This document shows, in pieces, positions 3,857-39,563 of a stretch of DNA of 64,000 nucleotides; the first letter of the stretch is position 1, and the number at the start of each line of letters is the position of its first letter. The notes under the pieces were generated by a model. It did not search any database. It saw nothing but the letters and a program-made list of their open reading frames with translations, and was not told the origin of the DNA. The translations under genes were made by a program, and so were the position numbers. Source of the DNA: Escherichia phage vB_EcoM_Ozark; sequence record NC_054927.1. One strand, written 5' to 3'.

Positions 3857-5059
3857 TTATTTTGTAATAATGTCAAACTGTTCTTTAAAGCAGAAGCTTG
3901 AATCTTGATGCTGATACAAAAATTCATAAGCTTTTTCGCGTTCGCGGTCATAAAGAGTTCGGTCAGATGACAGTTCTTTAATACGTTCAAATGTTGATTC
4001 CATGTCATTTTCATCAAACCAAATGATACCGCTATCATGCGAGGTCAAAGGAGTATTATCAACACGGAATTTTAAATTTTCGCCAGTAGATTTCCAAAAT
4101 ACCGGAATTGTTCCACATGCACCAAGCTCGAGATGAGTATATTCTAAAGAACGTTGTAGATATTTTTTATCCAACTTACTCAACTGATAACCAAAACCGG
4201 ATTTACTCATACGTTCAAGCATTTCGCTATTTACATAACGGTCAAGAATTTGCGTTGGCAAATTAGGAGCAATTTTAATTTGGTCTACTTGATGAAGACG
4301 ATAATACTCGTATGGAATTCCTTTTTCTTTAATAGGAATGAACGCTGGAGAACGTTCCAGACCTTCCATAATAGTACTTAGTCCTGCAGGTTTAAGATGT
4401 TTTTCATGAAAATCAAACATCTGATAAAAACCTTTCCATGTAGTCGTACGACCAATCCAACGGTTGATATTCATGTTAATTTCAGAAACATCTTTCCAGT
4501 AGGTTGACCGAACCTTCGCAATATCCATAGGAGGCTGAAAGTTATATACTGTCGGTGCTTCTTCAATATCATCAAACAGAGAAACTGTTTCAGGATACCA
4601 TTCTTTCATCAGAACTTTATTAAAATCACCATTATCAGAATGGCTAAAAATAACATCAGCTCGACGAACAGTTTCTTCTAATCCCAAATTTCGGCGCAAA
4701 GAAAGAGAAGAATGGTCATGTTGATAAACTACAACACGAACAGAAGGTTTAATGTTATCAATAATTTTTTTATAGTTATTAATAGTGTCTTCTTCAACTG
4801 AAGTAGCAGGAACTGAATTTATAATTAGAATATCACAATCATTTACCAGTTTAAGTGTTTTATCGTATTCTTTTGCCAATAAAACCGGAATTGAAAATGA
4901 TTTATAATCATGTGCACAGTTACGAGTAAATGATTTATCTTTAGCATAAACCAAAGTTACTTCATGACCATTTTTAATAAACCAATCACGTTGCTCAAGA
5001 GAAAATTTAGTTACACCGCAACCTTCAAGACCTCGAGCCATAAAAATACATACTTTCAT
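3857..5059 (-). CDS. a-gt: DNA alpha-glucosyltransferase (glucosylation of hydroxymethylcytosine DNA)
   Basis: 400-aa ORF starting MKVCIFMARGLEGCGVTKF; size and position (after gene 47) match T4 a-gt. Confidence 0.8.
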   Translation of the reverse strand: MKVCIFMARGLEGCGVTKFSLEQRDWFIKNGHEVTLVYAKDKSFTRNCAHDYKSFSIPVLLAKEYDKTLKLVNDCDILIINSVPATSVEEDTINNYKKIIDNIKPSVRVVVYQHDHSSLSLRRNLGLEETVRRADVIFSHSDNGDFNKVLMKEWYPETVSLFDDIEEAPTVYNFQPPMDIAKVRSTYWKDVSEINMNINRWIGRTTTWKGFYQMFDFHEKHLKPAGLSTIMEGLERSPAFIPIKEKGIPYEYYRLHQVDQIKIAPNLPTQILDRYVNSEMLERMSKSGFGYQLSKLDKKYLQRSLEYTHLELGACGTIPVFWKSTGENLKFRVDNTPLTSHDSGIIWFDENDMESTFERIKELSSDRTLYDREREKAYEFLYQHQDSSFCFKEQFDIITK

Positions 5060-5474
5060 TTAATATCCTCTTTGTTTTGGTTTATTTTACCAAAAATTTA
5101 TAAAGCAATATAGGAGCCGAAGCTCCTATCCACATAATACGCCATACAGAGGCTCATTAGAACTTTTAAATTTTATGCGCTTATATGTTATAGTTCCTTC
5201 TGCTTTAGCTTTATCATGAGACTCTTTAAAGCGTCTCATCATTTCCTCTTTAGAGGAACGAATTTTATTATAATCTATTTCAGAAGTCTGGGTGTTCATC
5301 TTTCACATTTGCCACCATTTTTTGACTTGATAAGAATCAACCCACACTTTCATATTAGGGTCTGCTCTTACAATAGGAGGATTAACTTCTTTAATTGAAC
5401 TATCATGGTATTCTTTTTCAGAAATTTTCACGCAAAGATGACCATTCAAAGATTCAGTAAATCCTGCATTAATT

Positions 5475-36162: not shown

Positions 36163-36636
36163 TTATTTGATTTGTTTAGCAGACCAAATGCGGTCTTTAA
36201 TAATTTTTTGGATGTCTTCAACATACTCAAGAGAGTGAGCATGTGGGTTATCTTTAAAACTATAAGCACGAGCTAACTTTTGACCTTCAGTTTTGATTAC
36301 TAAAAGCTCTTTAAGGATAGCTTCATATCTGGAGATAATTCCTTTAACAATATTTTTTTCTTGTGTAGCTTTAGGATCTGCTTTAGGAGCAGGTTTACCC
36401 GAAGCCTTTGCAAAAGCAGCGCCAGTAGCAACTAAACTTTTCCAGGCCATACTAACTGCATTCCCTGTAAATCCTTCGGCTTTCATATCACGAGCAAATT
36501 GGAATCGTGATTCATCGGAAGCATCTTTATAGGAATATTTACCCGCGGCAATGGCTGCTTTTGCGACAGCTTGAATTTCGGTGCTAGACGCTTCATTTAA
36601 CACCGCTTCATTTAAAAATTGAGTATATGATTTCAT
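36163..36636 (-). CDS. Putative packaged protein with capsid-targeting-like N-terminus
   Basis: 157-aa ORF beginning MKSYTQFLNEA (compare MKTYQEFIAEA); Ala/Lys-rich; flanked on both sides by near-identical terminator hairpins. Confidence 0.45.
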   Translation of the reverse strand: MKSYTQFLNEAVLNEASSTEIQAVAKAAIAAGKYSYKDASDESRFQFARDMKAEGFTGNAVSMAWKSLVATGAAFAKASGKPAPKADPKATQEKNIVKGIISRYEAILKELLVIKTEGQKLARAYSFKDNPHAHSLEYVEDIQKIIKDRIWSAKQIK

Positions 36637-36684
36637 CTTATTTCCTGTTTTAATTCGTGAATTTAATATACTAATATTTATACT

Positions 36685-36712
36685 AAAAAAGCCCCAACCT
36701 TTTGGCTGGGGC
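36685..36712 (-). terminator. Terminator hairpin at the distal end of the tRNA/stable-RNA operon
   Basis: GCCCCAGCCAAAAGGTTGGGGC hairpin followed by TTTTTT on the minus strand. Confidence 0.55.
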
Positions 36713-36764
36713 TAAGCCTTGCGGCAACCTTGTCGGGGTTCCACCTGCTAAGGCAAGTGTTTGT

Positions 36765-36856
36765 ACGAAACGCCGGGATTCGAACCCGGTTATTAAGTAG
36801 TTGACGCTACTCAATATTTTTAAAAGGCCATATCTCAACCATATCCGAACGTTCCG
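36765..36856 (-). ncRNA. tRNA-like stable RNA (acceptor and T-arm present, no canonical anticodon arm found)
   Basis: T-arm CCGGG-TTCGAAT-CCCGG and a 7-bp acceptor pairing found by hand; ~92 nt; anticodon stem-loop could not be folded canonically; position corresponds to where T4 carries small stable RNAs downstream of tRNA-Arg. Confidence 0.3.
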
Positions 36857-37029
36857 TCAAAAACGCTACTCGGCTTACGGCAAAGATATTTCCTCGAATC
36901 GATAATTCGGTGCGCCGTTTCTGCTGTGATATAAGGGGGCATTAACAAAACATAAAGATTTATTAATGCCAGTCCTTAAACAGGGAACATCAGTCCGACG
37001 ACTTGCCGGTAGCGACCCGGCTTCTTGTC

Positions 37030-37105
37030 TGGTCGAGGCAGTAGGGATCGAACCTACGACCCAGGACTTAGAAGGTCCTTGCTCTTCCTTCTGAGCTATG
37101 CCCCG
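37030..37105 (-). tRNA. tRNA-Arg (anticodon UCU)
   Basis: Hand-folded cloverleaf: acceptor CGGGGCA/TGCCTCG, D-stem GCTC, anticodon loop CTTCTAA, T-loop TTCGATC, CCA encoded. Confidence 0.8.
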
Positions 37106-37109
37106 TAAT

Positions 37110-37185
37110 TGGGGTGACCGATGGGAGTCGAACCCATGACTACGAGAATCACAATCTCGAGTTCTACCAACTGAACTACGGCCAC
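37110..37185 (-). tRNA. tRNA-His (anticodon GUG)
   Basis: Hand-folded: acceptor 7 bp, anticodon stem CGAGA/TCTCG with loop TTGTGAT, T-loop TTCGACT, discriminator C, CCA encoded. Confidence 0.7.
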
Positions 37186-37299
37186 ATTAATACCTACTCC
37201 AATAATCAAGATGTCTTCACACGAAATTAAGAGAAGAGTGATCAGTTCAACCCCTATAATCGCGTCAAGTAGATATTAATGTGACAGTTGTCACAAATT

Positions 37300-37374
37300 T
37301 GGCGGACGTGATAGGATTCGAACCTATAACCAATCGCTTAACAGGCGATCGCTCTGCCATTGAGCTACACATCC
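37300..37374 (-). tRNA. tRNA-Asn (anticodon GUU)
   Basis: Hand-folded: anticodon stem ATCGC/GCGAT, loop CTGTTAA, T-loop TTCGAAT, CCA encoded. Confidence 0.75.
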
Positions 37375-37378
37375 AAAT

Positions 37379-37465
37379 TGGTGGGGAGTGGTGGAGTCGA
37401 ACCACCCGAGTCGCAATGACAATGGATTTACAGTCCACACCGCTACCTCTACGGGATAACTCCCC
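37379..37465 (-). tRNA. tRNA-Tyr (anticodon GUA), long variable arm
   Basis: Hand-folded: exact 7-bp acceptor GGGGAGT/ACTCCCC, anticodon loop CTGTAAA, ~15-nt variable arm, T-loop TTCGACT, CCA encoded. Confidence 0.7.
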
Positions 37466-37478
37466 TTAATTCTTAATT

Positions 37479-37553
37479 TGGTGGCCCTGGGTGGAATTGA
37501 ACCACCATCTGGCGATTATGAGTCGCTTGCTTGAACCTTCCAGCTACAGGGCC
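37479..37553 (-). tRNA. tRNA with anticodon CAU (elongator Met or Ile with modified C34)
   Basis: Hand-folded: exact acceptor GGCCCTG/CAGGGCC, anticodon loop CTCATAA, T-loop TTCAATT, CCA encoded. Confidence 0.7.
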
Positions 37554-37554
37554 T

Positions 37555-37630
37555 TGGTGCTGATTGACGGAATCGAACCGCCGACCTTCTCATTACAAGT
37601 GAGTTGCTCTACCTACTGAGCTAAATCAGC
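37555..37630 (-). tRNA. tRNA-Thr (anticodon UGU)
   Basis: Hand-folded: exact acceptor GCTGATT/AATCAGC, anticodon loop CTTGTAA, T-loop TTCGATT, CCA encoded. Confidence 0.75.
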
Positions 37631-37635
37631 AAAAC

Positions 37636-37725
37636 TGGCGGAGGCGATAGGATTTGAACCTATGAGTCGCCGGAGCGACTGCCGGTTTTCAAGACCGGTG
37701 CATTAAACCACTCTGCCACGCCTCC
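37636..37725 (-). tRNA. tRNA-Ser (anticodon UGA), long variable arm
   Basis: Hand-folded: exact acceptor GGAGGCG/CGCCTCC, anticodon stem CCGGT/ACCGG with loop CTTGAAA, variable-arm hairpin GTCGC/GCGAC, CCA encoded. Confidence 0.8.
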
Positions 37726-37727
37726 AG

Positions 37728-37801
37728 TCTCCATACAAGGATTTGAACCTTGGACCTCCTGATCCCAAATCAGGCGCTCTACCAAACTGAGCTACACGGA
37801 G
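37728..37801 (-). tRNA. tRNA-Pro (anticodon UGG)
   Basis: Hand-folded: anticodon stem CCTGA/TCAGG, loop TTTGGGA, T-loop TTCAAAT; CCA not encoded. Confidence 0.75.
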
Positions 37802-37811
37802 TAAATTAAAT

Positions 37812-37885
<74 letters not shown>

Positions 37886-37890
37886 AAATT

Positions 37891-37977
37891 TGGTGCGAGA
37901 AGTGGGACTCGAACCCACAAGGAAATCATTCCGCAGCATTTTAAGTGCTGTGCCTTTACCAATTTGACCATTCTCGC
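37891..37977 (-). tRNA. tRNA-Leu (anticodon UAA), long variable arm
   Basis: Hand-folded: exact acceptor GCGAGAA/TTCTCGC, anticodon stem CAGCA/TGCTG with loop CTTAAAA, T-loop TTCGAGT, CCA encoded. Confidence 0.8.
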
Positions 37978-37983
37978 GTTATA

Positions 37984-38592
37984 TTATTTATTACGTGAAA
38001 AAGACTGTTCTATCAATTCTGGACACTTTCGTTCTATCCATTTTCTAGCTTTTTGTGGGCTTATACCTATTATTTTAGCAGCTTTACTAACCCATCCAAA
38101 TTTAGAATAATCGATTTTAACTAATTCTTCGTAAATTTCATCAGTTAAAATCTTTTCATTAATATTTACCAGTAAATGATATAATTTGTTATCATTAGCA
38201 ATTTTAATGAATCTTTTATAGTTTCCGCCTTTACTTAAACCTAATGAAGTAATTGCAGATGATATAGTAGCCGAATTTAATAATGCGTTTAAAATTTCTT
38301 CATCACTAACATTATAACGCTTTTTATTATTTTTAATATTTTTACCAGCAAAAGTATCAGTTTGCGAATGACAGTTTGGACATAATAATCTTAAATTTGA
38401 TTTAAGATGATTTTTGTTATTTCCATCAATATGGTCTAATTGCAGAACAATATGCTTATTTTGCCATTTTGAAATTTTACAAATTGCACACTCATATGGA
38501 AAAATATTTTCTTTTATTATTTTGTCTTTCAGCTTTCCTGTACTAAAATTTGGATGTTTTCCTTCAAAAATTTCAGCTAATTTAGTATCCAT
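37984..38592 (-). CDS. HNH-family homing endonuclease abutting the tRNA cluster
   Basis: HNH/zinc motif LQLDHIDGNNKNHLKSNLRLLCPNCH plus CAIC; ORF track begins at TTG (38616), first ATG at 38592 gives 202 aa; stop lies 6 nt from the tRNA-Leu 5' end. Confidence 0.65.
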   Translation of the reverse strand: MDTKLAEIFEGKHPNFSTGKLKDKIIKENIFPYECAICKISKWQNKHIVLQLDHIDGNNKNHLKSNLRLLCPNCHSQTDTFAGKNIKNNKKRYNVSDEEILNALLNSATISSAITSLGLSKGGNYKRFIKIANDNKLYHLLVNINEKILTDEIYEELVKIDYSKFGWVSKAAKIIGISPQKARKWIERKCPELIEQSFSRNK

Positions 38593-38702
38593 AATATGAT
38601 TCCCAATTATTAACAAAGGCTCTCAAGCAAGAACCCTTGATGATAGAGGGTATTAATCAGTGCGATATGAGTTAATAATAACAAATAATTCTTAAAGCAT
38701 AT

Positions 38703-38990
38703 TTACCATTTATGATAATACATATTTACGATGCATTCAAGACCCAAAGGATTCTTGAAAATATCATATTCAAGAGGACCTTTTTCCGTTTCAATAAAGA
38801 AATCAAAATTTACTGTATTAAATTTACGGTCTTCCTTCACTAATTTAACCTGAGAAGATGAACGGTCAATGTAAACCTTTTCAACTTCAAAACATGTTAA
38901 AATGCCATAATCATCAATCAAGGCTTTAGCTGCTTCTTGATCATATTTATATCCATTTTCAACGGATGATACTTTCGCATAAAGAATCAT
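38703..38990 (-). CDS. Hypothetical protein
   Basis: 95-aa ORF. Confidence 0.4.
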   Translation of the reverse strand: MILYAKVSSVENGYKYDQEAAKALIDDYGILTCFEVEKVYIDRSSSQVKLVKEDRKFNTVNFDFFIETEKGPLEYDIFKNPLGLECIVNMYYHKW

Positions 38991-38992
38991 TA

Positions 38993-39415
38993 TCAGCCTT
39001 CATCAACAATAGTATGAGTATGGGCATTTACGATTTGCCACCAATCAAAGCGATTAGAACCATACATCGGTTTGTTTTCATTTTCTTTGATAATATCACG
39101 GAGTTCATCTTCGGTAGCGGCTTTCGCGATTAAATCAGCATATCCACCACGAGGATAATAATTATCACCTGCAAAAAGTAAAAAATTTGGTGTAATATTA
39201 TTGAACTCTTCAAGAGTAATAACTGTTCCTGATGGTAATTGAACAATCTCTACATAGTTATATCCTAATTTTTGAGCAGCATCTACTGCTTCAAGCAGAG
39301 TATCATGAGCCCGTCCTATTTGGCAATTTGGCTTTTTAGATGGATTAGCCTGATAATCCGCGTACACTTTATACATTCTATTCACCTTTAGAAATTTTAT
39401 CCATAACGATAGCAA
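38993..39415 (-). CDS. Hypothetical protein
   Basis: 140-aa ORF; true start may be the internal Met (MYKVYADYQ...). Confidence 0.4.
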   Translation of the reverse strand: MLSLWIKFLKVNRMYKVYADYQANPSKKPNCQIGRAHDTLLEAVDAAQKLGYNYVEIVQLPSGTVITLEEFNNITPNFLLFAGDNYYPRGGYADLIAKAATEDELRDIIKENENKPMYGSNRFDWWQIVNAHTHTIVDEG

Positions 39416-39563
39416 TTAAACCAATTACAAATGCTACTACAAGTGAAAACACATTTTCTGCTGTAGTTAATAATCCGCATATAAATCCAACAAACATTGA
39501 AAAACTAAAAGCGGAAGCAGAAATTGCAATAGCAACATTTCGAATTAATTCACAGCGTTTCAT
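39378..39563 (-). CDS. Small membrane protein
   Basis: 61-aa ORF, two hydrophobic helices; directly downstream of a promoter/stem-loop cassette. Confidence 0.3.
   Translation of the reverse strand: MKRCELIRNVAIAISASAFSFSMFVGFICGLLTTAENVFSLVVAFVIGLIAIVMDKISKGE

Follow-up and report, generated by a model that had tools for sequence, protein, structure and literature searches.

An HNH endonuclease gene in place of tRNA-Gln(UUG) at the head of the tRNA operon of a T4-like phage

We analysed a window of 64,000 nucleotides (nt) from Escherichia phage vB_EcoM_Ozark (NC_054927.1) and, within it, an HNH endonuclease gene located immediately upstream of the tRNA genes. The window belongs to a T4-like phage (Tequatrovirus): positions 36600-39500 match >1,100 phage records, the best of which are those of slur03/slur14, MLF4, ACG-C40 and HY03 (96-98%). 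The T4 gene order is kept around the locus, with gene 1, 57A, 57B, ipI, trna.4, trna.3, trna.2 and the tRNA operon all on the minus strand (Table 1). The cluster, of which tRNA-Leu(UAA) is the first tRNA transcribed, contains neither a tRNA-Gln gene, nor segB, nor a GIY-YIG insert, and ARAGORN found no tRNA-Gln anywhere in the 64-kb window.

The mechanically called open reading frame (ORF; 37984..38616, minus strand) counts 210 amino acids (aa) from a TTG codon. In RefSeq relatives with identical genes, however, the start is the ATG at 38592-38590, which yields a gene of 609 nt coding for 202 aa. This ATG, rather than the TTG at 38616, is the start of the HNH gene, and the first eight codons of the mechanical ORF (38593-38616) are probably untranslated. 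An earlier note on this DNA had placed an HNH gene at 37984-38616, ending 6 nt from tRNA-Leu. The gene is real and its end holds, as the TAA stop codon (37986-37984) leaves a 6-nt gap (37978-37983) to tRNA-Leu(UAA) (37891-37977), but its start must be moved by eight codons.

Table 1. Positions of the HNH cassette, its junctions and its neighbours in the window
Feature	Position	Strand	Evidence
HNH (His-Me finger) endonuclease gene, 202 aa	37984..38592	-	ORF, RefSeq relatives, PHROG/Pfam profiles, alignments, structure model, polymorphism
5' part of the mechanical ORF: CATATT spacer, tRNA-Gln remnant and conserved upstream spacer	38593..38616	-	
Upstream junction TGGGAAT, nt 1-7 of tRNA-Gln of HNH-less relatives	38599..38605	-	
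Downstream junction A-A-C	37978..37980	-	
Cassette proper, ~618 nt, 26% G+C, replacing tRNA-Gln nt 8/10-71	37981..38598	-	
tRNA-Leu(UAA), class II, first gene of the remaining tRNA cluster	37891..37977	-	ARAGORN
Ten-gene tRNA cluster: Leu, Gly, Pro, Ser, Thr, Met/Ile(CAU), Tyr, Asn, His, Arg	37030..37977	-	ARAGORN
Middle-promoter-like motif: MotA box TGCTTTA, 12 nt, TATTAT	38675..38699	-	Motif scan
Tract with zero differences from HY03, 731 nt; candidate recent conversion tract centred on the cassette	37896..38626		
trna.2 homologue, 95 aa, conserved upstream neighbour fixing T4 synteny	38703..38990	-	

In phages T4, G50, RB6, T2, slur11, SHFML-11, HY01 and Bas43, a 73-nt tRNA-Gln(UUG) gene lies between trna.2 and tRNA-Leu, which is where, according to the earlier note, it might be expected. 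In HNH-less phages, this gene abuts tRNA-Leu with a spacer of 1 nt, and the transcribed strand reads ...TTAATAAT-TGGGAATTAGCC...(tRNA-Gln)...ATTCCCAG-C-GCGAGAATGG (tRNA-Leu). The corresponding strand of the window reads ...TTAATAAT-TGGGAAT-CATATT-ATG...(HNH)...TAA-TATAA-C-GCGAGAATGG. The first 7 nt of tRNA-Gln thus survive in the window (TGGGAAT, 38605-38599). Nine nt of its 5' end survive in slur14 and pSe_SNUABM_01 (TGGGAATTA), and the downstream junction of phiD1, PBM-1 and VEc74 (...TATAG-C-GCGAG) retains the last two nt of tRNA-Gln together with T4's 1-nt Gln-Leu spacer. The cassette sequence between the junctions has no counterpart in HNH-less Tequatroviruses. As the breakpoints are identical in all nine carrier loci that were read, with point variants at the junction bases, the sequences argue for a single founding event, after which those bases acquired point mutations.

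The search for tRNA-Gln remnants proposed in the earlier note therefore had a small positive outcome, namely TGGGAAT (TGGGAATTA in slur14) on one side and A(G) plus C, from the 3' end and the spacer, on the other. Beyond the junction match, no tRNA-Gln remnant was detected in 37978-38710 using Rfam (E<=0.1) and blastn-short with both tRNA-Gln alleles. A split or degenerate tRNA-Gln inside the ORF was rejected, as both searches returned the 7-nt junction match only. The remnants at the junctions show that tRNA-Gln preceded the cassette at this site. The opposite order, with an ancestral HNH allele and a later insertion of tRNA-Gln, was rejected because carriers keep 7-9 nt of one end of tRNA-Gln and 2 nt of the other.

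The HNH gene is carried by 62 GenBank phage records with at least 97.9% nucleotide identity, and its locus is the same in all of them. When the HNH gene and tRNA-Gln were concatenated into a single query, a tRNA-Gln match was found in none of the 60 carriers listed, and the tRNA-Gln part alone was matched in about 565 other records. The HNH cassette and tRNA-Gln(UUG) are therefore mutually exclusive alleles of one site, in agreement with the link to tRNA loss that the earlier note had considered possible. That tRNA-Gln has moved elsewhere in carriers was rejected, as the concatenated query matched a single place per record in 60 of the 60 listed. A related genome with the gene at another locus and an intact tRNA-Gln, which the earlier note had named as evidence against the link, was not found. 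Carriers represent ~9% of Tequatrovirus records and are distributed patchily over different species and flanking haplotypes; the flanks of G50, an HNH-less phage, are up to 99.3% identical. Our literature search found no paper describing a swap of HNH for tRNA-Gln at this locus; what is new here is the base-exact allelic replacement, the signatures of selection and transfer, and the pattern of class II tRNA adjacency described below.

Homologues from metagenomes qualify the link to tRNA loss. In divergent T4-like contigs, proteins P0002-P0004 (68% and 58% identity) are encoded just where synteny places the HNH gene, after homologues of trna.4/.3/.2 and before tRNA genes. In one of these contigs (L006), the 68% homologue starts 14 nt after an intact tRNA-Gln, so that the gene alone need not force the loss. 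The Tequatrovirus allele may have arisen by secondary deletion from such a 'Gln-HNH' insertion, or by one-step replacement. The arrangement of tRNA-Gln with the 68% homologue was found in none of the isolated phages of the phage collection. Contig L006 also contains two comparatively G+C-rich stretches of ~400 nt (4604-5009) and then ~230 nt (5087-5316), flanking tRNA-Met after the HNH gene, in which no gene is called. The second ends in a T-arm/acceptor-like sequence (GGTTCGAGTCC...), and Rfam gave no match in either; they may be unrecognised structured RNAs or degenerate tRNAs.

Tequatroviruses have two tRNA-Gln(UUG) alleles, those of T4 (L002 3958-4031) and G50 (L003 1779-1852), which differ by a compensatory block in the anticodon stem (GCATAGCACTTTGACTGCTAGATGC in T4, GCACTGGATTTTGATTCCAGGATGC in G50). 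The G50 type is seemingly the commoner one (80-90% identity band, 356 records).

The protein matches PHROG 14736 'HNH endonuclease' over its full length (E=5e-124) and ten further HNH-type PHROGs, making 11 HNH or endonuclease-VII PHROGs in all, and its homologues number in the thousands, with 5,510 in databases and some 578 or more relatives in IMG/VR. Its match to Pfam HNH (PF01844) is weak, at 17.3 bits compared with a gathering threshold of 21.4 (E=0.005). As the close homologues P0003 and P0004 have precomputed PF01844 hits and 11 PHROGs match, this shortfall reflects sensitivity and not a different fold. Both motifs quoted in the earlier note were recovered: LQLDHIDGNNKNH spans residues 50-62 and CPNCH spans residues 71-75. 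C35, C38, H54, N66, C71, C74 and H75 are invariant in the homologue alignments; two CxxC zinc knuckles (C35/C38 and C71/C74) flank the active site, and the H-N-H catalytic residues are all present. The protein thus has the catalytic His (general base), the structural Asn and the metal-binding His expected of a beta-beta-alpha-metal core. In the structure model, which is confident, the HNH/zinc-finger domain is N-terminal (about residues 1-80), followed by two C-terminal helical modules resembling a helix-turn-helix (HTH; about 97-134 and 151-201), that is, separate DNA-binding module(s) joined to the catalytic domain. GenBank labels the gene 'HNH endonuclease', 'homing endonuclease' or 'F-TflIV'.

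The gene is under strong purifying selection. Among seven alleles, 18 of 116 synonymous and three of 490 non-synonymous sites are polymorphic, and full length is kept by each of the 62 copies, with at least 98.5% protein identity. A chance ORF was rejected on the basis of this 18:3 polymorphism, the end-to-end match to PHROG 14736 (E=5e-124) and the thousands of homologues.

Several observations bear on mobility. The G+C content of the cassette is 26%, compared with 35% for the window. The ORF is present or absent at one locus among collinear relatives and lies outside any intron or intein: no intron RNA was detected near it, and Rfam shows tRNAs only around it, which bears out its description as free-standing in the earlier note. 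Carriers span several Tequatrovirus species and combine freely with other variable modules of the cluster: segB, the GIY-YIG gene of the tRNA-Pro site and the 171-aa ORF may each be there or not. The most telling comparison is with HY03, which shows 0 differences over the 731 nt of 37896-38626, a stretch that comprises the cassette, ~34 nt of the spacer before it and ~88 nt of tRNA-Leu. The 2.1 kb around this stretch contain 73 differences (2-14 per 100 nt, about 4% divergence), and if the gene differed at the flank rate, a count of zero in it would have a Poisson probability of about 3e-12. Because this identical tract sits in flanks that are ~4% diverged, it points to recent short-tract lateral transfer centred on the cassette. 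No flank single-nucleotide polymorphism (SNP) linked to HNH presence was found within about 150-190 nt on either side in 16 phages, and long co-conversion tracts visible as HNH-linked flank haplotypes were therefore rejected.

The spacer upstream of the HNH gene is shared with HNH-less phages and contains the motif TGCTTTA-12 nt-TATTAT (38699-38675), which fits the consensus of T4 MotA-dependent middle promoters. The window has 13 MotA-type motifs compared with 2.3 expected. We infer that this motif is a candidate promoter for both the HNH gene and the tRNA operon. No dedicated sigma-70 promoter or terminator was found in 38593-38702, the MotA-box-like motif being the only signal there, and the leader showed no significant folding (z = -1.4). 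Nothing resembling a Shine-Dalgarno sequence precedes the ATG except the GGG of the tRNA-Gln remnant, at a distance of 9 nt, and this is weak. The HNH gene would thus use the signals of the tRNA operon, a MotA-type motif ~80 nt upstream and a weak ribosome-binding site derived from the remnant, and would come first among the cistrons of the operon transcript. Its message would then end 6 nt past the stop codon, where RNase P would cut at the 5' end of tRNA-Leu.

Taken at a probability of roughly 0.6, our preferred reading is that the gene codes for an active, free-standing HNH homing endonuclease with a target within or adjacent to the junction between tRNA-Gln and tRNA-Leu in HNH-less relatives. 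Cleavage and homing activity are deduced here from sequence. On co-infection with an HNH-less relative, the enzyme would cut the DNA of the latter in or next to this junction. The carrier itself would be immune because the target sequence is absent from it; tRNA-Gln nt 8/10-71 and the Gln-Leu junction are indeed missing from carriers. Repair off the carrier genome would copy the cassette with a short flank and erase tRNA-Gln. As for the origin of the allele, the data fit equally a one-step illegitimate replacement and a two-step route, in which the cassette was inserted between Gln and Leu and tRNA-Gln was lost afterwards by deletion.

The working model for such a role is SegB, a proven homing endonuclease of T4 that cuts inside tRNA genes and causes the T4 tRNA region to be inherited preferentially; where SegB is present, the tRNA set tends to be a different one (PMC2330249). 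Like the HNH gene, segB is a free-standing ORF between tRNA genes of the same operon and is absent from close relatives. In contrast, it has a GIY-YIG fold, its site lies between Ile/Met(CAU) and Arg, and its activity was shown experimentally, whereas that of the HNH gene is deduced. Similarity of the HNH protein to T4 SegB was looked for and rejected. By analogy, the HNH gene thus appears comparable to SegB in role.

A second swap is present in the tRNA operon of some relatives. There, a GIY-YIG ORF with a SegB-like N-terminal part lies exactly at the tRNA-Pro site (Bas43/TadeuszReichstein, L011 851-1501; PBM-1, L014 674-1282; HY01, L019 751-1359), and all these loci are without tRNA-Pro. Its stop codon is 6 nt before a class II tRNA gene, tRNA-Ser, and PBM-1 has both swaps, GIY-YIG/Pro and HNH/Gln. 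The C-terminal HTH of the HNH protein (window 37987-38110; DYSKFGWVSKAAKIIGISPQKARK) resembles the C-terminus of the Pro-site GIY-YIG protein (L011 851-940; DFSKRGELSKYAKHIGVSHTQAKR), with 12 of 24 residues identical and a pairwise E=2e-4; T4 SegB is without such an HTH. This resemblance suggests that a DNA-binding module was shuffled between nucleases with unrelated catalytic domains in one tRNA cluster.

The closest characterised relative of the HNH protein is HegA (F-TflIV) of phage T5 (tblastn E=5e-15, 34.7% identity over residues 16-184, i.e. 84% of the protein). HegA is the HNH endonuclease of the T5 tRNA gene region (Akulenko et al. 2004, as cited in PMC5714182 and PMC2330249), and in PMC5714182 it appears together with MobA-E among the His-Me finger nucleases of the PF01844 group. 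It has the same CxxC/DH/N/CPNCH core and a C-terminal HTH, and its gene is likewise free-standing and adjoins a tRNA gene, 23 nt after tRNA-Ile2. It differs by an extra N-terminal domain of ~60 aa and by having no middle helical module, and it belongs to another phage family (Demerecviridae) with different tRNA neighbours. We know of no tRNA that T5 HegA has replaced.

MobA-E of T4 share with the HNH protein the broad His-Me finger group, T-even phages as hosts and the same genomic lifestyle, but they are not close relatives and the mob genes are outside the tRNA cluster. As an indirect test of similarity to Mob proteins, T4-type genomes without the cassette were not among the 251 tblastn hits (E<=1e-3). 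The 83 Escherichia-phage records among the hits are carriers and T5-like phages, not the hundreds of mob-bearing T4-type genomes. More generally, HNH genes are the most widespread coding sequences in tRNA arrays and a proposed source of tRNA repertoire diversity (PMC5966550, PMC6409571). The association reported for the arrays of mycobacteriophages and other viruses is like that of the 80 metagenomic relatives considered below, but these studies are at the level of gene content and describe neither base-exact replacement of a tRNA by HNH nor a class II preference.

Several points weigh against the homing explanation. The Gln-Leu junction as target is a guess. The HY03 tract is a sign of recombination, but not of the nuclease having caused it. 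The target need not be tRNA-Gln itself, given that in L006 the homologue and an intact tRNA-Gln occur together. Translation would depend on a weak ribosome-binding site, and a strong sigma-70 promoter was not found immediately upstream. Finally, purifying selection and the 58-68% homologues at the same syntenic spot could mean a long-resident, beneficial gene.

This last point leads to an alternative that we consider unlikely but take seriously, that of a resident, domesticated nuclease that is not, or never was, homing here and is kept for a benefit to the phage, e.g. by degrading the genomes of co-infecting competitors, excluding them or acting on host DNA. Its patchiness would then result from ordinary homologous recombination among T-even phages combined with vertical descent. 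Besides the strong selection and the syntenic position kept by the 58-68% homologues in divergent T4-like contigs, this agrees with the lack of any decayed copy (0 of 62 records) and with flank SNPs being shuffled whatever the HNH status, as fits the high recombination of these phages. However, a resident gene accords poorly with its absence from about 90% of close relatives, which keep a functional tRNA. A recent sweep also accounts better for a cassette that is far less diverse than its flanks and for 731 identical nt against a background diverged by 4%, and excluding competitors through site-specific cutting would be mechanistically equal to homing.

The second alternative concerns the target and arises from the genomic neighbourhood of the relatives. 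We determined the tRNAs within 2.5 kb of the HNH genes in 80 IMG/VR loci (L023-L102) encoding the nearest relatives of the protein; kinship among contigs is ignored in these statistics. Such tRNAs are present in 75 of the 80 loci, for a total of 541 (median 6 per locus), 508 of them on the HNH strand. In 25 loci, a tRNA on the HNH strand has its start between -22 and +17 nt from the stop codon of the HNH gene, compared with 67 of 443 other ORFs of these loci (p=8e-4). The abutting tRNA is of class II (Leu, Tyr, Ser) in 17 of the 25 loci vs 13 of 67 control ORFs (p=2e-5), and it is tRNA-Leu(UAA) in 8/25 vs 4/67 (p=0.003). tRNA-Gln(UUG) is the upstream neighbour in 4/25, compared with a background of 3% (p=0.007). 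Examples from isolated phages are Edwardsiella phage PEi20, the T5-like phage HdH2 and Gordonia phage GodonK. In PEi20 (L020 1800-2270), an unannotated 156-aa ORF lies between tRNA-Leu and tRNA-Met, just after trna.2, starting 7 nt after one tRNA and overlapping the next by 10 nt. Its product has an HTH-like N-terminal part and a C-terminal HNH, and it is 55% identical to residues 5-87 of the window protein.

Thus, the family might target class II tRNA genes in their 5' region (DNA for the acceptor/D-arm, of tRNA-Leu(UAA) or of Leu/Tyr/Ser generally), in a manner similar to SegB, which recognises the T-psi-C segment, and insert just upstream, with the loss of Gln being collateral because Gln abuts Leu with a 1-nt spacer. 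The layout of the window is the same, with 6 nt to tRNA-Leu(UAA), and the GIY-YIG cassette at the Pro site, despite its unrelated catalytic domain, is likewise 6 nt from tRNA-Ser. Nevertheless, we regard this reading as quite unlikely. The counts are not independent, the relatedness of the contigs being uncontrolled, and most relatives differ in architecture, with an N-terminal extension and a C-terminal HNH. No common recognition sequence is evident in the HNH-adjacent tRNA-Leu(UAA) genes. Moreover, tRNA-Leu is unchanged in carriers, so that immunity would need a site reaching into the replaced sequence. The class II preference is a lead, not a result.

A non-functional element, i.e. a chance ORF or a decaying relic of invasion marking a tRNA-Gln deletion, could be argued from the sub-threshold Pfam score, the weak ribosome-binding site and the missing dedicated promoter, but it is highly improbable given the invariant catalytic residues and zinc ligands, the excess of synonymous changes, the 62 intact copies and the confident structure model.

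A broader and tentative proposal, which goes beyond our preferred reading and is unlikely to hold in full, is that the HNH proteins form a clade specialised on phage tRNA operons. They would read the 5' acceptor/D-arm DNA of class II tRNA genes (in T-even phages, the Gln-Leu junction), insert just upstream and be expressed within the tRNA precursor with a 3' end made by RNase P. Together with SegB-like GIY-YIG genes, whose C-terminal HTH is similar, they would overwrite neighbouring tRNAs again and again and so be the chief cause of tRNA gain and loss in unrelated phage families. If this were true, tRNA genes would act as portable, conserved homing sites.

Other features of the operon also vary. 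An optional 171-aa ORF with no Pfam match lies between the tRNA-Gln/HNH slot and trna.2 irrespective of HNH status, in VEc74 (L009 1593-2108), phiD1 (L012 2209-2724), T2 (L010 1039-1554) and Bas43 (L011 1832-2347). It is another presence/absence module heading the tRNA operon and is missing from the window between 38617 and 38702. At the other end, directly after tRNA-Arg, the window harbours homologues of the T4 small stable RNAs rnaC (species 1; 36764-36902) and rnaD (species 2; 36909-37028) on the minus strand, 98.6% and 100% identical to the RB6 annotations. In slur14 and G50, a 116-aa 'hypothetical protein' is annotated in the rnaC/rnaD interval; its ORF sequence has no blastn match in the window.

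The displaced tRNA-Gln decodes the phage's preferred Gln codon, CAA, which occurs 360 times in the window ORFs of at least 150 aa, compared with 140 for CAG. The locus is a fairly ordinary but clean example of mobile nuclease genes reshuffling the tRNA sets of phages, a concept that is already established. It shows, exact to the base, a natural case in which a tRNA gene was overwritten by a homing-type nuclease gene, and with it the vague idea that endonucleases shape phage tRNA repertoires becomes testable. Should the class II abutment hold up once phylogeny is corrected for, it would indicate where the recognition site lies. The tRNA counts used for comparing and classifying therapeutic T4-like phages vary owing to such cassettes. 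Finally, the same operon has at least two further endonuclease-for-tRNA swaps, those of SegB and of the GIY-YIG gene at the Pro site. The tRNA clusters of Tequatroviruses are therefore a compact system for weighing selfish drive against the translational benefit of phage tRNAs.

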